64,000 nucleotides of DNA from Escherichia virus TH55 (MT446421.1); one strand, 5' to 3'. Positions 9,278-60,216 are shown, counted from the stretch's first letter. Program-made: numbers and translations. The notes: generated by a model not told the origin, from the letters alone.

Positions 9278-9577
9278 TTAGAAAGAACCAGAACCTTTAA
9301 TTGTGTTCTGGCGACCTTTATTTTCTAATTCAGAATGGTCGATTTCGTATGCTTGTGCTACACCAAAGGCCTTTTTAACTTTAGCTAAAGAGCCTTTAGA
9401 TGTGACAATATTAAAAGTATTGCCTTTAGTAAAATCAACCAAATCCACTTGTACACCCTGTTTACCGAGGCTTGCTACAATAGCATCAACATATTGTTGG
9501 TCTAAATTGCCCTGGACTCCGATTTGAAATGCTTTGGGAGCTTTGGCTTCAGTAATAAATTCTTGATAAGTTTTCAT
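9278..9577 (-). CDS. internal-protein-like protein with capsid targeting sequence
   Basis: starts MKTYQEFITE, the T4 IP capsid-targeting leader with L/I-x-E cleavage site; adjacent to denV as ipII/ipIII are in T4. Confidence 0.55.
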   Translation of the reverse strand: MKTYQEFITEAKAPKAFQIGVQGNLDQQYVDAIVASLGKQGVQVDLVDFTKGNTFNIVTSKGSLAKVKKAFGVAQAYEIDHSELENKGRQNTIKGSGSF

Positions 9578-9625
9578 TTTATATTCCATTGTTTGGTTAA
9601 TAAAATCATTATACAACCTTTTTAG

Positions 9626-10042
9626 TTAAGCGTACACAGCTTTCCCATAGTATTTGTACCAAGCAGGCTTTTGAGAAATTTTCTCATTCAGTCTAGCTTG
9701 ACTGATTTCAATTGACCAGATTGATGGTTGATAATCATTCTTCCATTCATCAGGAATATCAGTTAAATCTTGGGTAGAAATATCTTTTATGTTAAACCCT
9801 CGCTTTAAACATTCCGCAATAAGTTCTTGATGCCGGTTTTTAAGGAACAAAAGCTTATCATAAAAGAAGGTGACATGACCAGTCCCTAAAAGGAAAGATG
9901 ATGGGATTTTAAAGTCAGAAACCTTTTTACCATTTTGTACATGCTTACGAACAGCACCAAACACGCGAGGAAGCTCACGATATTCAGCCATAAGATGTTG
10001 GTCAGCGAGTTCAGATACCAGGGTTAAGTTAATGCGAGTCAT
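9626..10042 (-). CDS. denV: endonuclease V (pyrimidine dimer DNA glycosylase)
   Basis: 138 aa, [35 protein letters not shown]... near-identical to recalled T4 DenV. Confidence 0.9.
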
Positions 10043-10095
10043 GTTTGTTCTCCGTAGTTGATAGGGTCATTATAACCCTATCATTTGGAGATGTA
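10043..10095 (-). promoter_or_regulatory. early promoter/hairpin cassette (family 1) upstream of denV
   Basis: coding strand tgtaca...atagggt TATAAT gaccctat caactacggag ATG; -10 inside inverted repeat. Confidence 0.45.
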
Positions 10096-10097
10096 CA

Positions 10098-10367
10098 TCA
10101 TTTCTTAGAGTATTGACCCATAAGTTTAGCGATATCACCCAATTTCTGATTAAACAAATAATCCACTTCTTTGCCAGATTTATCTACAATTTGCCACTGA
10201 CCATTTCCTTTGTTGCCAAAGGTCCAATCACCGACTTTAAATGAAGTTCCATTAACTTTTTTAATAGAAGTAAACTCAAAGCCTTCTTTCTTAGCTAAAA
10301 ATGCCATGCGGCTTTCATCTGATTCATTTAATACAGATTCAGCCAAAAATTCTTGATACGTTTTCAT
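10098..10367 (-). CDS. internal-protein-like protein with capsid targeting sequence
   Basis: starts MKTYQEFLAE; 89 aa. Confidence 0.55.
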   Translation of the reverse strand: MKTYQEFLAESVLNESDESRMAFLAKKEGFEFTSIKKVNGTSFKVGDWTFGNKGNGQWQIVDKSGKEVDYLFNQKLGDIAKLMGQYSKK

Positions 10368-10375
10368 ATTTTACC

Positions 10376-10867
10376 TTATTTGTATGCGTCAAAAGTTCCG
10401 GTGCGGAAAGTTTCAATAACTCGTTTAGCCCGGTTCGGAGTCTGGACTTTATACCATCTTGAGTCTGCCAGTTCCTTGGCAGCCGCTTCCCATGATTTAG
10501 CCTTCAGCAATCGCATACCCTTAGGAAAACCCGCAACACCAGCAACACCCATCTGGAATACCATATTAATGAGTGCACAACGACGAACTTCATCAAGTAC
10601 ATCATAAACAGGTTTTAAGACAGGATGTCTCAAGATTCCGGCTTTAGCCTTTTCGACCGAACGGTTAAACAGTGTTTCGGCTTCGTGTTGGGTTATACGA
10701 CCATTACAGACGCGACCCATGAGCTTATCGAGCTCGGCGCGAGCAACATCTTTAGATGGGTTCTTAGTTATCAGTTGCCCGATGCCAATGGTCCAATAGC
10801 CTTCAGTATCTTTATACAAATCCAACTTACAACCTTCATCTATGCGTAACATTTCGAATATATTCAT
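10376..10867 (-). CDS. e: endolysin (T4 lysozyme)
   Basis: [12 protein letters not shown]...[13 protein letters not shown]...[12 protein letters not shown]...[22 protein letters not shown] matches T4 lysozyme. Confidence 0.92.
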
Positions 10868-10893
10868 AATACCCCCTTATATAGGGGTATTTA

Positions 10894-11352
10894 TTATCCG
10901 AAAATTTGAGTCATTACCTTGTACATCGATTTGCCCATCACATACTGCCATTGACTCGGTTTAATCAGAGCAAATGCATCGAACTCTGGAACCGAACTAC
11001 CATCCGGGAAGGTATGATAGGCAGAGCATTTACTATGTCTAAACTGCTCATGCTCAACCGGAACCGTGTACAAAAACAGGTGAAGATTTTTGTTATCTGA
11101 ATAACGGAACTCACCCAGGTCCTTTAAGAATGCCGGGTCGTATTGGGTAAACCCGGTTTCTTCTTCGGTTTCACGGATAGCCGCTTCAATCGGGGATTCA
11201 CCAGCTTCAACATGGCCCTTAGGGATGTCCCATTTATGTGCAGGCATACCTGGTTTACGAGAACAAGTCACACGACCCATGAATAACTCTTTATCTTCAG
11301 TCATGAAAATAATGCCAGCAGATAATTCTTTCACCTTGTTTTTCTTACTCAT
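10894..11352 (-). CDS. nudE: Nudix hydrolase
   Basis: Nudix box GHVEAGESPIEAAIRETEEETG; position after e as in T4; start at MSKKNK. Confidence 0.8.
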   Translation of the reverse strand: MSKKNKVKELSAGIIFMTEDKELFMGRVTCSRKPGMPAHKWDIPKGHVEAGESPIEAAIRETEEETGFTQYDPAFLKDLGEFRYSDNKNLHLFLYTVPVEHEQFRHSKCSAYHTFPDGSSVPEFDAFALIKPSQWQYVMGKSMYKVMTQIFG

Positions 11353-11581
11353 CGTCACGTTTCCATGATTGGTTAAAAATATCACTCATTAAAAATTCAA
11401 GTCTATTTTCCAATGAAGGGCTTTCACTACTAGAAACTTGAACCATGTAGTCGGAAATAGGTCGGAACATATCCAAGTCAGTTTCTAAATCATCTTTGAT
11501 TTTCTCTTCTGATGTACCTGTATCATAGGAATACAGATAAGAATCACATGACTCTGATTTAATATAAATTGCAATACTCAT
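11345..11581 (-). CDS. hypothetical acidic protein
   Basis: 78-aa ORF. Confidence 0.4.
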   Translation of the reverse strand: MSIAIYIKSESCDSYLYSYDTGTSEEKIKDDLETDLDMFRPISDYMVQVSSSESPSLENRLEFLMSDIFNQSWKRDDE

Positions 11582-12165
11582 TTACGGCATTCCTCAATAA
11601 AGGAGTTCAATGTATTTTTCTTAGTGATATCGTCATATACCTTTTTAACTTTAGAAATACGAAAAGGTACTTCAATAACCATAGTCCATAAAAATGATGC
11701 AATAAGTCCAGCAAGAGCAGTAGAAAAGCACGCACCCATTACAGCTACGGGTGCTTCATTTTTGCCTGTCAAGAAAAACCACAGGAATGGTAAAAATAAG
11801 ATTCCAGCCCAGGCATAAAACCTGGAACAAATTAACTTATCAAATTCATCACTCCAGGTACGAAATCCATATTTCTTGCTATAAGAAATTAATGGGTCGG
11901 GTGTCTGTTCTTTGAGTGGTTCTGGTTGATACCCATTAATGATATATCCCATTTTATATTCCTTAATTAAAAGCTCTTTCACATGACGATTGCATCGCGA
12001 CCAATCAACATTTTCCACCTTGATTCCTTCATCACCATCATCAAGGTTCGCCCAATATTTTTTGGTAATCATAAATTCATCTCTTGATACAATTATACCT
12101 GCATTTTCCGACCGACGGATGAAGTTTACATCAACACCCATACAACCCGGCTCATAAAGGGCCAT
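11578..12165 (-). CDS. hypothetical membrane protein with C-terminal FIEECRK tail
   Basis: 195 aa; soluble N-domain, two hydrophobic helices, basic tail ending NSFIEECRK. Confidence 0.45.
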   Translation of the reverse strand: MALYEPGCMGVDVNFIRRSENAGIIVSRDEFMITKKYWANLDDGDEGIKVENVDWSRCNRHVKELLIKEYKMGYIINGYQPEPLKEQTPDPLISYSKKYGFRTWSDEFDKLICSRFYAWAGILFLPFLWFFLTGKNEAPVAVMGACFSTALAGLIASFLWTMVIEVPFRISKVKKVYDDITKKNTLNSFIEECRK

Positions 12166-18034: not shown

Positions 18035-18478
18035 TTAAATTTCAAATTCTTTGCGGAAGTTGGAAGCATAAGACTGAACTGATGCTTTGTTGAACCCAAA
18101 CTCACGCACAATCATATCAATAACAGCTCTGCGAGCAGCACCATTAGACATATTAACAGTTTTGAACATATCATAGCATAAATCTTTGTTGCTCATACCG
18201 GAGCGTTTAGGTGCCTTACGTTCAGCTTTTGGTTCAGCTTTAGGAGTAGGTTTAACTTCTGGTTTAACCTGTCCATCATTCAGACCTTTAAAAATTTTAC
18301 CTGCCAGAGTTGCCAGTTTAGCAGCTTCGCCACGAGTGATACCAAATACTGCCGGGTTAAATGAAATACCTTCAGCTGTCAGACGTTTGAAGAACATACG
18401 GGCTGCGGATTGTGCTTCAGCTTCAGAAGAGTTGTTTAATGCCAGTTTAACGTACTTAACCAGTTTTGAAGTTTTCAT
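18035..18478 (-). CDS. hypothetical protein (paralog of 18562..18987)
   Basis: 147 aa from MKTSKL; C-terminal NGAARRAVIDMIV...VQSYASNFRK shared with neighbour. Confidence 0.45.
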   Translation of the reverse strand: MKTSKLVKYVKLALNNSSEAEAQSAARMFFKRLTAEGISFNPAVFGITRGEAAKLATLAGKIFKGLNDGQVKPEVKPTPKAEPKAERKAPKRSGMSNKDLCYDMFKTVNMSNGAARRAVIDMIVREFGFNKASVQSYASNFRKEFEI

Positions 18479-18540
18479 TTTATTATCCCGTTTGTTTATT
18501 TGGTAACTCAGTATGGGATAATTATACATTATCCCACCTG
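18479..18540 (-). promoter_or_regulatory. early promoter/hairpin cassette (family 2)
   Basis: coding strand GTTTTAC...gggata atg TATAAT tatccc atactgagttaccaaataaa...ATG. Confidence 0.5.
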
Positions 18541-18561: not shown

Positions 18562-18987
18562 TTATTTTTGAGCTTTGCGGAAGTTGGAAGCATATGACTG
18601 AACAACAGTCTTTTTGATATCATGGGTGTTAACCAGAACATCAATCAGAGCGCGACGAGCTGCACCATCTGCCATATCAATTTCTGCAAATGCCTGGAAG
18701 CAAATGTCACGAGCATTACCAGATTTTGACTGGATTTTTTCTTCTTTAACTTCTTCAATTGGGAATTCAATCATTTCAGCTTGGATTAATTCAATGATAG
18801 ATTCTTTTGACTGTTTGGTGTTTACCTTCAGTTCAGAATTAAGGGACTTGGCGATGGCAACAATCTGGGTTGAAGTCAGATGAATAAGTGCATCTTCACG
18901 AATGCAGATTTCACATACTTCATCGGCAACCATTTTGTTGGTGATGCGGGTAACAGAGAATGCAGAGGTCAGGGTCAGGAAGTTCAT
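18562..18987 (-). CDS. hypothetical protein (paralog of 18035..18478)
   Basis: 141 aa from MNFLTL; C-terminal DGAARRALIDVLV...VQSYASNFRK. Confidence 0.45.
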   Translation of the reverse strand: MNFLTLTSAFSVTRITNKMVADEVCEICIREDALIHLTSTQIVAIAKSLNSELKVNTKQSKESIIELIQAEMIEFPIEEVKEEKIQSKSGNARDICFQAFAEIDMADGAARRALIDVLVNTHDIKKTVVQSYASNFRKAQK

Positions 18988-19060
18988 TTTATTTCTCCAA
19001 AGTTTTGTTTGATTCAGTGTGTAACTCAGTATGGAATCATTATGCATCCAGTCAATTCGG
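18988..19060 (-). promoter_or_regulatory. early promoter/leader cassette (family 2)
   Basis: coding strand GTGTAC...CATAAT gattccatactgagttacacactg...ggag ATG. Confidence 0.45.
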
Positions 19061-19108
19061 ATGTACACTACTTTTTGAAGAAAATTTCAAATTTATTCGG
19101 GGTATAAA

Positions 19109-19128: not shown

Positions 19129-19683
19129 TTAGTTCTTATAAAAGCGGAACGGATTTATATGAAAGGCGAGCATAGCCTTAGGGATTGGTCGGGACAGAAG
19201 GCTCTTGAGCTTCCAACCACAATAAACGCGCAGATAAAAGGTGATTCCACCGACCTTGAGATAAGGAACAGAAGCAAAAACACCCCAGGCATTATCCGTC
19301 CACATCCAGAGCCATCCGTGATGAGCTTTATCCGGGGAACCGGATTCAACATCAGGATTGCCTTTATAATGGAATTCTGAATTGCAATCACGACCGAGCT
19401 TGTGGTAAGCAAAATTGTATGCTTTGTTTCGCCAGAGCCAAGCTACTCGTTGGAAGTAAACACCTAACGGCCATTTTCGGATTTTTGACCAACGTTTGAC
19501 ATGACCCCGGTCACCATCAATCGGATTATCATAAGTCATCATCCAATCAAACCCGAACGGAAGTTTACCAGTCTTTTTATTATAGAATGGAACTACAAAT
19601 GGAGCCAGGATAACGGCCAGAATCATGGAGATAAAATCCAGTGGAACTAACAGAATCCAACTCAAATATTTTAACAGTTTCAT
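19129..19683 (-). CDS. hypothetical membrane-anchored protein
   Basis: 184 aa from MKLLKYLSW with N-terminal hydrophobic helix; longer ORF start runs through upstream terminator. Confidence 0.45.
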   Translation of the reverse strand: MKLLKYLSWILLVPLDFISMILAVILAPFVVPFYNKKTGKLPFGFDWMMTYDNPIDGDRGHVKRWSKIRKWPLGVYFQRVAWLWRNKAYNFAYHKLGRDCNSEFHYKGNPDVESGSPDKAHHGWLWMWTDNAWGVFASVPYLKVGGITFYLRVYCGWKLKSLLSRPIPKAMLAFHINPFRFYKN

Positions 19684-19706
19684 ACGTTTCTCTTTAGTTG
19701 ATTTAT

Positions 19707-19735
19707 AAAAAAGCCCCAACCTTTCGGAAGGGGCT
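19707..19735 (-). terminator. rho-independent terminator
   Basis: agcccc...ggggct stem with tcgg-type loop and adjacent A-run on plus strand. Confidence 0.5.
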
Positions 19736-19772
19736 ATACCTTGTCGGGGTTCCACCTGCAAGGCAAGTGTTC

Positions 19773-20168
19773 TTATCCGCGAGCGAATGCCATTGCAGCG
19801 CGTTCGTTAGCACGGTCGGTGATGTTCAAGAATTTATCACGAGCGATTTCGATTGGAGCACCAACCCAGTCAGCAGCACCATTACCTGGAGACTGTTTAG
19901 GGCGAACCATATAAGTTGAAACTTTGGAACCGGCTAGTTTGGCACCAGGTGCCGCGGCATTTTTAACGTCTTTAGCTTTGATGCCAAACCCAGTTACGAT
20001 ACCCCAAGAAACGCCATTAACTGGTTTCTTGAACATAACACGGTCACCAATTGAAACACCGGCTTTTTCTGGAGCCACTAAAGAAAATTTACCAGCTTCA
20101 GTCAGTACGGATTCGGTGATGGTATTGCGATTTAAAAATTCTGCATATGTAAGCATTTTGTTTTCCAT
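19773..20168 (-). CDS. hypothetical protein, possible internal-protein-like leader
   Basis: 131 aa; N-terminus MLTYAEFLNRNTITE loosely resembles the MKTYQEFIAE leader. Confidence 0.4.
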   Translation of the reverse strand: MENKMLTYAEFLNRNTITESVLTEAGKFSLVAPEKAGVSIGDRVMFKKPVNGVSWGIVTGFGIKAKDVKNAAAPGAKLAGSKVSTYMVRPKQSPGNGAADWVGAPIEIARDKFLNITDRANERAAMAFARG

Positions 20169-20205
20169 TATTAGGGTTGTTGTTAATATTTATATTCCAT
20201 AGTAC

Positions 20206-20254
20206 CGGATGCACCATCCGCTCGGATTTCTCATACTACCGGACGCACCGTCCG
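20206..20254 (-). ncRNA. two tandem covarying hairpins (candidate small stable RNA or processing signal)
   Basis: cggatg-cac-catccg and cggacg-cac-cgtccg with compensatory changes, in a 225-bp noncoding stretch beside the tRNAs. Confidence 0.3.
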
Positions 20255-20392
20255 CTCTGGAAAAACTCCGTAAAAGGGTGCGCCGTTTCAGCTGTGATAT
20301 AAGGGGGCATCAACAAATCGTAAAGATTTATTAATGCCAGTCCTTAAACAGGGAACTTCAGTCCGACGACTTACCGGTAGCGACCCGGTTTC

Positions 20393-20632
20393 TCATTCAA
20401 TTGTAATAGCTAATTTGACTTTAACAACCTTATAATTGGAATCAAGGTCATTGAATTCCATAAAATTTGTTGCTAATCTGCGAGTCGGGAAACTTAGATA
20501 TTTATTATGCTCAGGTGGAGCGGTTAATGCAAACCATGGGACTTGTTTATCATTTTCATCAAACTCATCAAAGCTATAAACCAACTCGTTGTTGGTTATA
20601 TCCATAACTGCATATGATTCACTAATAACCAT
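20393..20632 (-). CDS. hypothetical protein
   Basis: 79 aa from MVISESY with GAGGA SD; longer ORF start overlaps tRNA-Arg. Confidence 0.35.
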   Translation of the reverse strand: MVISESYAVMDITNNELVYSFDEFDENDKQVPWFALTAPPEHNKYLSFPTRRLATNFMEFNDLDSNYKVVKVKLAITIE

Positions 20633-22302: not shown

Positions 22303-22557
22303 TTATTTTTTAGGGATACGATAGTAACGCATCTCAACATCTTTCTGCTTGTGCCACTTTTTGATAAGGTCTTCAGAACCTTTAATAGTAACGATGTCAT
22401 AGCGACCATCATGCGATACTTCAGCACTTAACTGCATGAAGTTGTCTAGTGAACGGCGCAATTCCTCATTAGAAAAACTACCACGCGGGGAACCAACATA
22501 AGCAAACTCAACTTTTGCATCTGCGGCTTCGTTAATAAATTCTTGATAAGTTTTCAT
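22303..22557 (-). CDS. internal-protein-like protein with capsid targeting sequence
   Basis: starts MKTYQEFINE; 84 aa. Confidence 0.55.
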   Translation of the reverse strand: MKTYQEFINEAADAKVEFAYVGSPRGSFSNEELRRSLDNFMQLSAEVSHDGRYDIVTIKGSEDLIKKWHKQKDVEMRYYRIPKK

Positions 22558-22612
22558 GTTGTCTCCAGTAGTTGATGAGATAATTATACTGCAGTTATCC
22601 CATCGCGTATAC
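22558..22612 (-). promoter_or_regulatory. early promoter/hairpin cassette (family 1)
   Basis: coding strand ...cagTATAATtatctcatcaactactggagacaac ATG. Confidence 0.45.
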
Positions 22613-22613
22613 T

Positions 22614-22856
22614 TTATTTTAAGTCTTCCAGACGTTTTTTCATCTTGGTGCCATTCTTAGCAATCTCGCCGGCATCAGAACAAAGAGCAAGGAGAGCTTT
22701 AACTTTACCCTGGTCGCCTTTAAAAGATGATGCATCTACTGAATCAGCAAGTTCTTTGATACGTGCAAACAGGCGCTCTGCTTCAGCAAGGGCTTGACCA
22801 AGTTTAACTTCCATACCATGGGAAGATTCTGTTATAAATGTTTGATAAGTTTTCAT
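22614..22856 (-). CDS. internal-protein-like protein with capsid targeting sequence
   Basis: starts MKTYQTFITE; 80 aa. Confidence 0.55.
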   Translation of the reverse strand: MKTYQTFITESSHGMEVKLGQALAEAERLFARIKELADSVDASSFKGDQGKVKALLALCSDAGEIAKNGTKMKKRLEDLK

Positions 22857-22864
22857 TTGAAATC

Positions 22865-23137
22865 CTATTTTAGATAAATTGCATATTTTTTATAACCAGC
22901 CGTCTCATGGCGAAGACCCTTGTCATTGGCAAAACGCTCAATGTTATTAATTTGGTTCTGGTCAAGTTCTGAAATGTCAAACGCAAAAAAGTTGCGTTTG
23001 TTACCAATTGTTATATGGTCAGTTAAGTCAATGCTATACAGGTGATTGATATTGTCAATCATAGCTTTGACTGCTTTACTAATTTTTACTTCTTCATTCA
23101 GTTGTGACTCGTTGAAAAATTCATTGAAAGTTTTCAT
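22865..23137 (-). CDS. internal-protein-like protein with capsid targeting sequence
   Basis: starts MKTFNEFFNE; 90 aa. Confidence 0.5.
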   Translation of the reverse strand: MKTFNEFFNESQLNEEVKISKAVKAMIDNINHLYSIDLTDHITIGNKRNFFAFDISELDQNQINNIERFANDKGLRHETAGYKKYAIYLK

Positions 23138-23145
23138 AAGAAACC

Positions 23146-23478
23146 TTATTTATAAAGTTTTGCCAGTTCTTTACGTCCGCGTGCAGACATAATAAATTGT
23201 TCATCGCCAATTTTAAAATAAGCCATACCGCCGTCAACAGCGATACCAATTTCTTTAGTACCTTCTTTGCCTTTCCACTTGCCACCAGATTTCAGGACAG
23301 CTTCAACTGCAGCTTTGGAATATTTGGACGTTTGAAAACGTTCATTACCAATCTGAAAGAAAACACCATCTGCATTTTTGGTTAAACCAAATTTCAGAGA
23401 GCCTTCACTATCATCAATTGATTTGGTCTCATTGATGGCGGATTCGGCTAAAAACTCGTTGTAAGTTTTGATGTTCAT
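23146..23478 (-). CDS. internal-protein-like protein with capsid targeting sequence
   Basis: starts MNIKTYNEFLAE; 110 aa; position equivalent to T4 ipI. Confidence 0.5.
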   Translation of the reverse strand: MNIKTYNEFLAESAINETKSIDDSEGSLKFGLTKNADGVFFQIGNERFQTSKYSKAAVEAVLKSGGKWKGKEGTKEIGIAVDGGMAYFKIGDEQFIMSARGRKELAKLYK

Positions 23479-23542: not shown

Positions 23543-24233
<691 letters not shown>

Positions 24234-53709: not shown

Positions 53710-54137
53710 TGTTTATTATCCCTGATGATTACGAATTAACTCTTGAAAACATTGAAAGTGTTTCCGAAGAAGCTCAGGGACAATTTGATTCATTATCTGA
53801 AGCCTTAGAAAAAGACGATATAAATATTATTGTAGAAAACATGTTTGCAGCCGGTGAATATGAAAAAGCAACGGTTATCGGCGCGCTGAATGAAGGTGTT
53901 CAGCTTAACGAATTTATCGTTAAACATGTATCGTCTCGCGGTGAGTTAACCCGCACAAAAGACCTAGCTACTCGTAAGCGTAATGCTTTCCAAACAACTG
54001 GTCTTTCTAAAGCTAAACGTCGTCAAATTGCCCGTCTGGCTACTAAAACGAAAAGAGCAAACCCATCTACGCAAATCAGAGCAGAGCGCAAGCGCAAAAA
54101 AGCTCGAGCTAAGCGTAAAGCATTCGGACTTGATTAA
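53709..54137 (+). CDS. 68: prohead core protein gp68
   Basis: 142 aa with basic C-terminus. Confidence 0.8.
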
Positions 54138-54775
54138 TGGAACAGAAACCAGAGTTACTAATCGAACACTGGGGTCAACCGGGCGAAATTAAAGATGGTG
54201 TACCGATGTTGGAATCTCATGACGGTTCCAACAGCGATTTAAAGCCAGGACTTTATATTGAAGGTATTTTCCTACAAGCTGAAGTTGTTAACCGTAATAA
54301 ACGACTTTATCCTAAACATATTTTGGAAAAAGCCGTTGCTGATTATATGGCAGAACAGGTTGCTACTAAACAAGCTTTAGGAGAATTAAATCATCCGCCC
54401 CGTGCTAACGTCGACCCTATGCAAGCCGCTATTATTATTGAAGATATGTGGTGGAAAGGTAATGATGTATATGGTCGCGCGCGCATTATCGAAGGCGACC
54501 ATGGCCCAGGTGATAAACTTGCTGCAAATATAAGAGCAGGTTGGATTCCAGGTGTATCTAGTCGTGGACTTGGTTCCTTGACTAAATCAGCAAAAGGTTA
54601 TAGCATCGTTAATGAAGGTTTTAAATTGACGGTTGGAGTAGATGCAGTATGGGGGCCAAGTGCTCCGGACGCTTGGGTCAAACCAAAGCAGATTACAGAA
54701 TCACAAACGGCAGTTGCCGATACCAGTGCCGATGACGCCTTTATGGCTCTCGCAGAGGCTTTAAAGACGTTATAA
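54137..54775 (+). CDS. 21: prohead core protease gp21
   Basis: 212 aa, same size as T4 gp21. Confidence 0.9.
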   Translation: MEQKPELLIEHWGQPGEIKDGVPMLESHDGSNSDLKPGLYIEGIFLQAEVVNRNKRLYPKHILEKAVADYMAEQVATKQALGELNHPPRANVDPMQAAIIIEDMWWKGNDVYGRARIIEGDHGPGDKLAANIRAGWIPGVSSRGLGSLTKSAKGYSIVNEGFKLTVGVDAVWGPSAPDAWVKPKQITESQTAVADTSADDAFMALAEALKTL

Positions 54776-57651: not shown

Positions 57652-58932
57652 ATGGCAAAGATTAACAAATTACTGCGCGAGTCAACTATTACTACCAGCA
57701 ACTCCTTGGGCCGCCCGAATCTTGTTGCTTTGACCCGCGCTACGACTAAATTGATTTACCGCGATATCATCGCTGAACAACGTACTAACCAACCTGTTGC
57801 TGCACTGTATGGTGTTAAATATCTTACTCCTGATAATGAATTCAGTTTCCAGACGGGCGCTACTTATGGAGGCGAAGTCGGTTCTAAAGACCGCACAACT
57901 ATTCCAGAATTAACTACAGCCACTCAGCCTGTGGCTAAAGGCGAATATATAAAATACCAAAATATCGTTTACAAAGCTCTGGTTGATAATCCATTTGCAT
58001 CGACCACAGAAACAGTGTTATCTGATGTTCTGCAAGAAGGTCTTATTGCATCGACTATTCGCCTTGTTCCTGATGCCGCACACACTGAAAAATTCGAAGC
58101 CGGTGATGTTGAAATTAGCAATGCTGTATTCCAGGTTAACAAATGGAATGCTCCGGTTAAAACACGTAAATTGAAAACTGCATTAACTGTTGAACTTGCC
58201 CAGGATATGGAAGCAAATGGTTTTAATGCTCCTGCTTTCTTAGAAGACCTGCTTGCCACTATTATGGCAGATGAAATTAACAAAGATGTTCTTCAGTCTC
58301 TTATTACCGTTTCCAAGCGTTATAAAGTAACTGGCGTTTCTGACAATGGCACCATCGATTTAACATACGATGCAGCCCCAGAAGGTGCACGTAAACTGTA
58401 CGAACTGGTTTGCGAAATGAACTCCGAAATTCAGAAAACTACATCTTATTCCGGTACCTTTGTTGTTGCCTCTAGCCGTGTTGCTGCTATGTTGGCCGGT
58501 TCTGGTTGGTTGAAACACAGACCAGAAGACGAACAGTGGCTCCCCGAAACAGCGTACGGTTATTTGATTAATGGCCTCCCTGTATTCTGTGATGTTAACA
58601 GTCCATTGGATTATGTAACTGTTGGTGTTAAAGAAAATTACGGCGGAAACGAAGTCGTAGGCGCAATTTTCTATGCTCCTTATACCGAAGGCCTGGACTT
58701 GGATGATGAAGAGCACGTTGGTGCGTTTAAGGTCATTGTGGACCCAGACAGCTTGCAGCCATCTATCTCTCTGATGGTTCGTTACGCACTTTCAGCTAAC
58801 CCGTACACCGTTGCTAAAGACGATAAAGAAGCTCGTATTATCGATGCAACCAATATGGATTTAATGGCCGGTCAGAGCAATATGTCTTATCTGCTCGGTG
58901 TTAAACTTCCGCCAATCATTTATGAGGCGTAA
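57652..58932 (+). CDS. 24: head vertex protein gp24 (copy 1)
   Basis: 426 aa; gp23-like fold protein after gene 23. Confidence 0.88.
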   Translation: MAKINKLLRESTITTSNSLGRPNLVALTRATTKLIYRDIIAEQRTNQPVAALYGVKYLTPDNEFSFQTGATYGGEVGSKDRTTIPELTTATQPVAKGEYIKYQNIVYKALVDNPFASTTETVLSDVLQEGLIASTIRLVPDAAHTEKFEAGDVEISNAVFQVNKWNAPVKTRKLKTALTVELAQDMEANGFNAPAFLEDLLATIMADEINKDVLQSLITVSKRYKVTGVSDNGTIDLTYDAAPEGARKLYELVCEMNSEIQKTTSYSGTFVVASSRVAAMLAGSGWLKHRPEDEQWLPETAYGYLINGLPVFCDVNSPLDYVTVGVKENYGGNEVVGAIFYAPYTEGLDLDDEEHVGAFKVIVDPDSLQPSISLMVRYALSANPYTVAKDDKEARIIDATNMDLMAGQSNMSYLLGVKLPPIIYEA

Positions 58933-60216
58933 ATGCAAAAGATTAATGCACTAATTCACGAATCAACATTAACGGCGGCCAACCAGGTCGCCCGTCCTAA
59001 TTTGCTTTCTTATACTCAAGCCACGAATAAACGAATTTTTAAAGCGCTCGTGGCCGAACAGAAAACTACCCAGCCTGTTGCAGCGCTGTATGGTGTTCGT
59101 GTTCTGAACCCAGATGATAAAATGACTTATCTCGGTGGAGCAACATTTGCAGGTCAGATTGGTATGTTCGAGCGTAAGAATATTCCAGAATTTACAAACA
59201 AAGACGAAGCTTATGCAGTCGGCGATATGTTCCAGTTTGAAAGTGTTGTGTTCAAAGTTTTGGAAGCATCCCCATTCGCCGGTACACTCGAAACTGATTT
59301 AGGTGAAGTTATTTCTGAAGCCATTGCTGCTGGGCATATAAGAATGATGTCAGATGCTGCTTTCACTGATAAATTTGAAAAGGGGCATCCTGAAATTGCT
59401 GAAGCTGGTTTTCGTATCGATAAATGGCAGACTGAAGTTAAATCCAGAAAGTTGAAAACTTCTTTAACTGTCGAGCTTGCCCAGGACCTGGAAGCAAACG
59501 GTTTTGATGCAACAGACTTCATCGATAATATTCTCGGCATTCAAATGGCAGAGGAAATTAATAAGGATGTATTGCAATCCCTTATTACTGTTAGTTCCCG
59601 CTTCAAGGTGCAAGGTGTTTCGGAAAAAGGTGTATTGAATCTTACTGACCCGAAATATGATAACGCGCAGGACCGCGCGCGAACCCTGTATTATTATATG
59701 TGTGAAATGAATTCTGCAGTTCAACGTCAGACTTCGTTTGCTGGTACATATGCGGTTGCTTCTTCCCGTTGTGCAGCTATTTTAGCCGCTTCTGGCTGGG
59801 TTGAGAAAAAGGAAGACCAGGATGAATTGGCCTATGGTGTTCTGAAGAACGGTTTGCCTCTTTACGCTGATATGAATAGTCCATGTGATTATGTTATTGT
59901 TGGTGTAAATGCAGATATGGGTGAAGGTCAGACGGTCGCATCTTTGTATTATGCGCCTTATACGGAAGGGCTTAGCGAAGTTGATGATGAGGGTGATACC
60001 TCGGTTGGGGAATTCAAGGTTATTGTTGACCCTGAAAGCTTACAGCCTACGGTTGCACTGTTAGCTCGTTATGCTTTGACTGCGAACCCTTACACCGTTG
60101 CTAAAGATGATAAAGAAGCTCGCCTTATTGATGGAGCTGATATGGATAAGATGGCTAACCAAAGTCAATTGAGTTCTTATCTTGGTGTTAAACTTCCACC
60201 GCTGGAAAAAGAATAA
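58933..60216 (+). CDS. 24: head vertex protein gp24 paralog (copy 2)
   Basis: 427 aa; colinear similarity to copy 1 (MQKINALIHESTLTAANQVARPNL vs MAKINKLLRESTITTSNSLGRPNL; both end PYTVAKDDKEAR.ID). Confidence 0.8.
   Translation: MQKINALIHESTLTAANQVARPNLLSYTQATNKRIFKALVAEQKTTQPVAALYGVRVLNPDDKMTYLGGATFAGQIGMFERKNIPEFTNKDEAYAVGDMFQFESVVFKVLEASPFAGTLETDLGEVISEAIAAGHIRMMSDAAFTDKFEKGHPEIAEAGFRIDKWQTEVKSRKLKTSLTVELAQDLEANGFDATDFIDNILGIQMAEEINKDVLQSLITVSSRFKVQGVSEKGVLNLTDPKYDNAQDRARTLYYYMCEMNSAVQRQTSFAGTYAVASSRCAAILAASGWVEKKEDQDELAYGVLKNGLPLYADMNSPCDYVIVGVNADMGEGQTVASLYYAPYTEGLSEVDDEGDTSVGEFKVIVDPESLQPTVALLARYALTANPYTVAKDDKEARLIDGADMDKMANQSQLSSYLGVKLPPLEKE

Follow-up and report, generated by a model that had tools for sequence, protein, structure and literature searches.

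Two short open reading frames (ORFs) with closely similar N-termini, MKTYQEFITE and MKTYQEFLAE, lie on either side of the pyrimidine-dimer glycosylase gene denV in the 64,000-nucleotide stretch of DNA analysed here (the window). Are they genes for internal head proteins (IPs) of the T4 type, do they correspond to T4 ipII and ipIII, and do they add anything new to a long-established phenomenon in which varied IP bodies stand behind a conserved leader and are shuffled by recombination? A reading of the sequence alone (the sequence-only reading) had described both ORFs as internal-protein-like, and the coordinates and N-terminal peptides that it gave are exact; both ORFs lie on the minus strand.

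The denV locus and its close relatives

The region 9200-10900 is 100% identical, in reverse complement, to Escherichia phage UPEC07 (MW250787.1), a VR7-like phage classified in Straboviridae, Tevenvirinae, Gaprivervirus. Among the records of this group that the search listed, the remaining ones, such as VR7, VR20, VR25, VR26 and SP18, are 92-98% identical to it. The gene order on the minus strand is nudE (10894-11385), the lysozyme gene e (10376-10867; Pfam Phage_lysozyme, 6.6e-13), an ORF for an 89-aa IP (10098-10367; protein beginning MKTYQEFLAESVLNE), denV (9626-10042; identified by Pfam Pyr_excise at 9.4e-16 and by annotation), Ip7 (9278-9577; 99 aa, beginning MKTYQEFITEAKAP) and a homologue of vs.8 (8589-9116). 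The stop codon of e lies 8 nt upstream of the start of the 89-aa IP, and denV is the conserved gene that separates the two IP slots. The vs.8 homologue, annotated under that name in VR7, forms the downstream boundary of the denV-side slot; it carries no leader, and its PHROG match is phrog_1488 (9e-69; unknown function). In the 160-nt spacer between Ip7 and vs.8, no structured RNA was found (z = 0.0).

The corresponding T4 order is nudE-e-ipIII-ipII-denV-vs.8. The 89-aa IP fills the T4 ipIII/ipII slot, whereas Ip7 occupies the denV-vs.8 slot, which is empty in T4. The neighbourhood is therefore similar to that of T4 ipII/ipIII, as had been claimed, but the exact gene order differs, with Ip7 on the other side of denV.

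Two catalogued internal-protein families

Database matches identify the ORF at 9278-9577 as Ip7, a protein that already has a name. Its identity with annotated ip7 is 97% for VR7 and 100% for VR20 and phage 212, and it matches phrog_2667, “internal head protein”, at 8.4e-43 over residues 1-99 (profile of 101 positions). Relatives occur in 283 phage records, including T2 Ip7 (49% identity) and CC31 ip7, and in CC31 and Erwinia phage COW86c the family adjoins 57B. Compared with the phrog_2667 proteins of VR7, VR20, T2 and CC31, length, leader and ITE10 site are the same, and there is no difference of substance. UPEC07 also calls Ip7 an internal head protein, but from an upstream ATG (MEYK...) that has no ribosome-binding site and is not conserved. 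In its structure model (pLDDT 74.9), Ip7 forms a ferredoxin-like beta-alpha-beta-beta-alpha-beta domain, for which the fold matches were generic only.

By the same kind of evidence, the ORF at 10098-10367 belongs to the catalogued family phrog_8765, “internal virion protein” (4.6e-37, residues 1-89, profile of 92 positions); UPEC07 annotates it as hypothetical. Proteins of this type were found in 42 phage records, with the match covering at least 80% of the query in 41 of them, and the hosts in these records are Escherichia, Enterobacter, Serratia, Kosakonia, Edwardsiella, Erwinia, Pectobacterium, Klebsiella, Proteus and Providencia. Identity beyond Gaprivervirus is 37-78%. The members in Pectobacterium phage PM2, Enterobacter phage CIP9, Serratia phage CHI14 and Escherichia phage EcS1 are 63-78% identical over the full length of the 89-aa IP, carry the same MKTY.EF leader and occupy the same slot directly downstream of e; the gene abuts e in every record with visible neighbouring annotation. 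Its occurrence within Gaprivervirus is patchy; about six records have it, and their sequences are 100% identical. The AF2 model (pLDDT 80.9) has a low-confidence linker at residues 10-15 and a first body helix from residue 17, and a Foldseek search of viral models with the 89-aa IP returned its own orthologues only.

Both proteins also have distant paralogues in the main cluster (22303-23478, minus strand), a group of four IP genes with leaders that adjoins 57B. Ip7 is 32% identical over 76 aa to the product of 22303-22557 (1.6e-5), and the 89-aa IP is 37% identical over 51 aa to that of 23146-23478 (9e-7), both of the latter pair matching phrog_3966. The suggestion of two internal-protein-like genes thus holds, one being the named Ip7 and the other a full-length phrog_8765 member. 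Comparison with the IP repertoires of related phages, proposed earlier as a check, leads to the same two groups, a named family and one already present in RefSeq and PHROGs.

Could the genes flanking denV nevertheless be diverged orthologues of T4 ipII and ipIII? The similar neighbourhood (e ... denV) would suit this reading, as would a size of 89-100 aa, which resembles that of IPII. Against it, BLASTP aligns Ip7 and the 89-aa IP with T4 IPII/IPIII over the leader only (residues 1-11 to 1-16), the PHROG families are different, and Ip7 lies on the other side of denV and belongs to a family that CC31 and Erwinia phage COW86c carry at the 57B locus. We regard such orthology as highly improbable, and at the level of sequence it was rejected, as the mature proteins show no similarity. 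The earlier statement that the mature sequences differ from those of IPII/IPIII is borne out by this confinement of similarity to the leader. The concern that the bodies might prove orthologous to IPII/IPIII, and so hold no novelty, is answered in part: orthology was not found, but the novelty is small, given that both families are catalogued. What T4 IPI-IPIII share with the proteins described here is the leader, the gp21 motif, a small and basic mature form, accessory status and the same variable regions; they differ in that there is no mature-sequence similarity, and no match to a related solved fold was found.

Leaders and predicted processing sites

Exactly seven ORFs of the window, all of them on the minus strand, fitted a loose leader pattern that was applied in six frames to ORFs of at least 50 aa: the two flanking denV, the four of the 22303-23478 cluster, and one at 19773-20156, here called L7. 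The pattern stands at the ORF start in all seven, although in 23146-23478 (MNIKTY...) it follows the ATG by two codons. The leaders are far commoner than chance would give: in thirty shuffles the mean number of such ORFs was 0.27 and the maximum 2.

The capsid-targeting leader of Ip7 comprises codons 1-10 (9548-9577, minus strand; MKTYQEFITE). Nearly the same DNA (ATGAAAACTTATCAAGAATTTATTACTGAA in Ip7) encodes the leaders of the other IP genes in the window and of T4 ipII/ipIII, and across all of these genes the leader DNA is conserved at synonymous sites. In the 89-aa IP the leader extends over codons 1-15 (10323-10367, minus strand) and contains two candidate protease sites. The leader of L7 is also extended (20112-20156, minus strand; MLTYAEFLNRNTITE); it keeps Y4, E6 and F7, lacks E10 and has ITE at positions 13-15. 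The capsid-targeting sequence M-K-T-Y/F-x-E-F, with aromatic residues at positions 4 and 7, is recognisable in all three proteins (MKTYQEFITE, MKTYQEFLAE and MLTYAEFLNR), L7 departing from the consensus at L2, A5 and R10.

In experiments on T4 IPIII, its first 10 residues were enough to bring about packaging into the core of the prohead, positions 4 and 7 serving targeting and positions 8 and 10 cleavage by gp21 (PMC9026906). Y4/F7 and the (L/I)xE motif of the three proteins match these functional residues, with L7 as an IPI variant. The gp21 motif (L/I)-x-E occurs as ITE10 in Ip7, as LAE10 and LNE15 in the 89-aa IP and as ITE15 and LTE20 in L7. Every [LI]xE in these proteins lies in the leader and none in the body, so that the bodies would survive the protease. 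In the alignment of the 89-aa family, E10, L13 and E15 are invariant, and the invariance of L13 and E15 suggests that LNE15 is a second site.

Cleavage at these motifs is predicted to yield mature forms of 8.4-11.7 kDa with pI 9.2-10.3. For Ip7 this would be an 89-aa protein of 9.5 kDa and pI 9.3, cut between ITE10 and A. For the 89-aa IP, the mature form would have 79 aa (cut between LAE10 and S) or 74 aa (between LNE15 and S), with pI 9.2-9.4, and for L7 112 aa (between ITE15 and S) or 107 aa (between LTE20 and A), with pI 10.1-10.3. These are similarly small and basic as T4 IPI* and IPII* (8.0 and 9.8 kDa; pI 9.0 and 9.6).

The machinery for such processing is encoded in the window. The prohead protease gp21 (54137-54775, plus strand) shares 88% identity with its T4 counterpart over 208 of 212 aa, and the scaffold genes 67, 68 and 22 and the capsid gene 23 are annotated beside it. 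By analogy with T4, the capsid-targeting sequence (M-K/L-T-Y-x-E-F-hydrophobic) would bind each precursor to the gp22/gp67/gp68 core during prohead assembly, and gp21 would then cut after (L/I)-x-E, at residue 10 in Ip7, at 10 and/or 15 in the 89-aa IP and at 15 and/or 20 in L7. Cleavage would leave small basic proteins of 8-12 kDa and pI 9-10 in the head with the DNA; they would be ejected with it into the cell and act before any phage gene expression. Within the collection of papers searched, no proteomic study of VR7-like phages was found. From leader, cleavage motif and family membership, Ip7 and the 89-aa IP are very probably packaged internal proteins.

L7, a candidate new internal-protein gene

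The sequence-only reading had mentioned a possible seventh leader-like ORF at 19773-20168. The ORF is real, and its leader-bearing homologues support the leader; the protein most likely starts at the MLTY codon at 20156, and not at the upstream in-frame ATG at 20168 (MENK...), which is unlikely because the protein begins at the leader both in the independent cluster representative (P0001) and in the two remote homologues. L7 (19773-20156, minus strand) thus has 127 aa. It had no PHROG or Pfam match, and is found in 15 Gaprivervirus records only, at 99-100% identity and hypothetical wherever annotated; SP18, phage 212 and further close relatives lack it. Among 5.8 billion proteins it forms a single cluster. 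A profile search of PDB sequences gave marginal matches only (E ~0.01), which spanned about 25 residues and were to designed double-psi beta-barrels.

When 1.84 billion cluster representatives were searched exhaustively with HMMER, three matches to L7 were obtained, namely one fragment and two full-length proteins designated P0036 and P0035. P0036 has 125 aa, is 42% identical to L7 and begins MKSFKEFMLSE. P0035 has 202 aa, begins MYTFKEFLVESELDLITE and is 47% identical to L7 over the C-terminal domain, with an extra segment of about 80 aa between the leader and the domain common to both. The identities of 42-47% are those of HMMER; over the full alignment they are 38-40%. Both homologues lie on T4-like metagenomic contigs on which gene order is partly conserved. 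On one contig a homologue of the window ORF 18035-18529 lies downstream, and on the other a tRNA gene lies immediately upstream, as in the window. That the leader is kept while the rest diverges or is rearranged is the strongest available evidence for a functional leader module and for L7 as an IP family. As IP leaders also stand at the start of the only two distant homologues, L7 is probably an unrecognised internal-protein family.

L7 lies just downstream of a homologue of T4 rnaD (20277-20396, 88% identity) and of tRNA-Met and tRNA-Arg genes, outside the two classical IP loci. An exact match to the T4 late-promoter consensus, TATAAATA, is located at 20187-20194 on the minus strand, 30 nt upstream of the L7 start codon, and L7 is the only one of the three IP genes with such an exact match upstream. 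The motif occurs five times on the minus strand in 64 kb, which is about the number estimated from base composition, and its position is only suggestive because several matches per strand are expected by chance. Directly upstream of Ip7, a sigma-70 scan found no promoter; the TATAAT there looks like an early/middle-type promoter rather than a late one, and GCTTAA, 12 nt upstream of TATAAT, might be taken for a MotA box.

It has to be considered that L7 is not an internal protein at all, its leader resemblance being superficial or a relic of recombination, and that it acts in the cytoplasm of the infected cell. Its leader is non-canonical and has no E10, its gene lies outside the classical IP loci next to that of a DUF7338 membrane protein rather than an IP, and it lacks any PHROG or Pfam annotation. 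A non-canonical leader is not peculiar to L7, however, as VR7 Ip7 also begins MLTYQEF, and T4 IPI is likewise without E10. The IPI propeptide has the same extended layout as that of L7, with 19 residues (MKTFKEFTSTTTPVSTITE, followed by A) and a cut at ITE19. Moreover, the two homologues independently keep M-x-[TS]-F-K-E-F and a downstream (L/I)xE, and do so where the sequence that follows is unalignable or carries the 80-aa insert. A purely cytoplasmic L7 therefore seems unlikely to us, though less so than orthology of the denV-flanking genes to ipII and ipIII, and we consider it fairly probable from the leader comparison that L7 is a packaged internal protein.

Exchange of internal-protein cassettes

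The genes around denV differ among otherwise closely related phages. In an alignment of the e-to-Ip7 interval of UPEC07, VR7, VR20 and phage 212, the 3' end of denV, the 5'UTR and the leader are invariant (…TATAATGATTTTAT(T/C)AACCAAACAATGGAATATAAAATGAAAACTTATCAAGAA), and gaps open inside the leader. The body that follows denV and the shared leader is Ip7 in UPEC07, Ip10 in VR7 and VR20 and ORF127c-like in phage 212. In UPEC07, Ip7 comes immediately after denV because the Ip10 and ORF127c cassettes of VR7/VR20 are missing. Nothing occupies the e-denV slot in VR7; in VR20 it is taken by Ip5, and in UPEC07 and phage 212 by the 89-aa IP. Across the e-vs.8 interval, the four phages thus carry two to four IP genes in differing combinations. 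Such variability of the e-vs.8 interval, together with the presence or absence of L7, is the accessory, variable-locus behaviour of T4-type IP genes.

IP genes would accordingly behave as cassettes, added, removed and moved between slots (e-denV, denV-vs.8 and 57B-tRNA) by recombination between nearly identical leader DNAs of about 30 nt. Recombination of the conserved leaders, with shuffling of IP bodies, is attributed to Repoila et al. 1994 (as cited in PMC3012670), and the pattern found here fits that established view.

Function and possible targets

T4 Ip1, Ip2 and Ip3 are injected inhibitors, each of a distinct GmrSD type IV restriction enzyme (PMC12373910), and Bas37_0260, a protein of phage Bas37 with an IP leader, inhibits McrBC (10.1101/2025.11.20.689424). 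The leader of Bas37_0260 is N-terminal, its gene lies in an IP locus, and permissive hosts do not require it; with 77 aa, its length matches none of the three proteins described here (89, 99 and 127 aa). By analogy with these four inhibitors, the proteins described here would most probably be injected and act as stoichiometric inhibitors of host defence nucleases when the DNA enters. On this analogy we lean slightly towards an anti-defence role, whereas a type IV restriction enzyme as the specific target is rather doubtful.

Ip7, the 89-aa IP and L7 showed no sequence or fold similarity to T4 Ip1-3 and no match in PADLOC, and Pfam gave sub-threshold noise only. Profile searches of PDB sequences found nothing significant for Ip7 or the 89-aa family. 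The structure models of Ip7 and the 89-aa IP are compatible with defence inhibition but do not discriminate.

The DNA of these phages may bear on the choice of target. In VR7, gene 42 (hmC synthase) and beta-gt are absent at the T4 position and the dCTPase gp56 is kept. Gapriverviruses are reported to be without any known hmC synthase, yet to retain denB, alc and denA (PMC8056088, PMC12115623), which implies base modification of another kind. In a genus without a known hmC pathway, GmrSD enzymes of the T4 type, specific for glucosyl-hmC, may be irrelevant, and the targets may differ.

The proteins might instead be packaged mainly for a structural purpose, in core assembly or in neutralising or condensing DNA in the head. 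In favour of this, a basic pI of 9-10 is predicted for the mature forms. In T4, moreover, IPIII mutants are slower in head assembly and produce polyheads, and the DNA is accompanied by about 1000 molecules of basic IPs (PMC9026906, PMC3012670). On the other hand, T4 IPs are dispensable on laboratory hosts (PMC9026906), and each of the four IPs whose role is known inhibits a host defence. Gain and loss among nearly identical genomes are moreover typical of accessory arms-race genes, unlike structural components. A mainly structural role is thus improbable, more so than a cytoplasmic L7. Taking leader, cleavage sites and these precedents together, we consider it likely that all three ORFs encode T4-type internal head proteins, which would be targeted to the core, cut by gp21 and injected, and would most probably be inhibitors of defence nucleases.

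Novelty and significance

The finding is mostly a known one, and its sole new element is probably L7 as an additional IP family. One unannotated candidate family is added and the UPEC07 annotation is corrected, in which an IP is labelled hypothetical and the vs.8 homologue is mislabelled “IpIII”; the practical value is modest. A bolder proposal, to which we give limited credence, is that L7 founds a new IP family with an IPI-like propeptide in a third slot, downstream of the tRNA genes and rnaD, and that, in a genus without a known hmC pathway, the seven injected proteins of this phage, Ip7 and the 89-aa IP among them, disarm defences other than the glucosyl-hmC-specific GmrSD enzymes on which T4 Ip1-3 act.

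IPs act at DNA entry, ahead of phage gene expression. Among the many IP families, a target is known for four only, and all four disarm type IV restriction enzymes. The IP repertoire of a phage thus helps to predict host range and suggests candidates for new anti-defence activities. With an implied DNA modification and seven IP-type genes, Gaprivervirus would be a place to seek targets other than GmrSD.

Promoter matches near denV and the internal protein genes

Upstream of denV, at 10043-10097 on the minus strand, the sequence matches a sigma-70-type promoter at 10 of 12 positions (TGTACA and TATAAT, separated by a 17-nt spacer), and its -10 box is flanked by the inverted repeat gatagggtTATAATgaccctatc. 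Upstream of the internal protein (IP) gene at 22303-22557, and of ip7 in the relatives VR20 and phage 212, the architecture is similar. VR7 carries a short deletion upstream of ip7 compared with VR20 and phage 212 (about 1878-1900 of L003, a stretch of VR7 sequence), by which the ribosome-binding region of ip7 is lost and the TATAAT box is joined to the coding sequence. This junction explains the annotated VR7 Ip7 start, MLTYQEF, whose ATG comes from TATAATG.

Neighbours of the internal protein genes

The region upstream of L7, the candidate IP gene near the tRNA genes, contains a homologue of T4 rnaD (species 2 RNA; 20277-20396, minus strand, 88% identity, 121 nt), which is not annotated in the record of the Gaprivervirus UPEC07 and for which there is no Rfam family. 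Directly downstream of it, at about 20200-20276 on the same strand, are two direct repeats, each a hairpin (gagcggacggtgcgtccggta and gagcggatggtgcatccggta), at the position held by rnaC in T4. Compared with shuffled sequence, the entire segment 20200-20396 (minus strand) has the more favorable folding (z = -2.5). Two adjacent paralogous ORFs (18035-18529 and 18562-19068, both minus strand) share the C-terminal motif ...VQSYASNFRK, and a divergent T4-like contig from a metagenome encodes a homologue of theirs (L010, 1121-1564) downstream of its L7 relative.

The main IP cluster adjoins a 57B homologue (23543-23998, minus strand) annotated as RNA ligase/cyclic nucleotide phosphodiesterase. Erwinia phage COW86c has a counterpart that carries the label Acb1-like anti-CBASS protein, so the cluster adjoins another probable anti-defense gene.

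Three UPEC07 labels look like misannotations, namely "IpIII internal head protein" for the vs.8 homologue (8589-9116, minus strand), which has a P-loop-like motif and is without a leader, "portal vertex protein" for an e.2-like membrane protein (11578-12165), and "holin" for a DUF7338 membrane protein (19129-19761; Pfam 1.5e-62). Two tandem genes annotated as capsid vertex protein (57652-60216, plus strand; UPEC07 record 67934-70498) are gp24-like paralogues, whereas T4 has only one gene 24.

A reported non-canonical base and leader abundance

In Gapriverviruses, as seen in the VR7 record (8000-34000), gene 42 (dCMP hydroxymethylase) and beta-gt are absent between uvsX and imm, and the interval is filled by VR7ORF049c, a 168-aa ORF, while the dCTPase gp56 is retained. 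According to published comparisons (PMC8056088, PMC12115623), Gaprivervirus has a non-canonical base of unidentified kind, and this point about the VR7 region bears on the whole window.

When the leader was written as the degenerate pattern M[LKY][TS][YF][AK]EF[LM], more than 600 stretches in IMG/VR viral contigs matched it, a lower bound, from which it follows that viral metagenomes are very rich in leaders of the IP type. Match numbers of this size would make a systematic census of leader-bearing families feasible.
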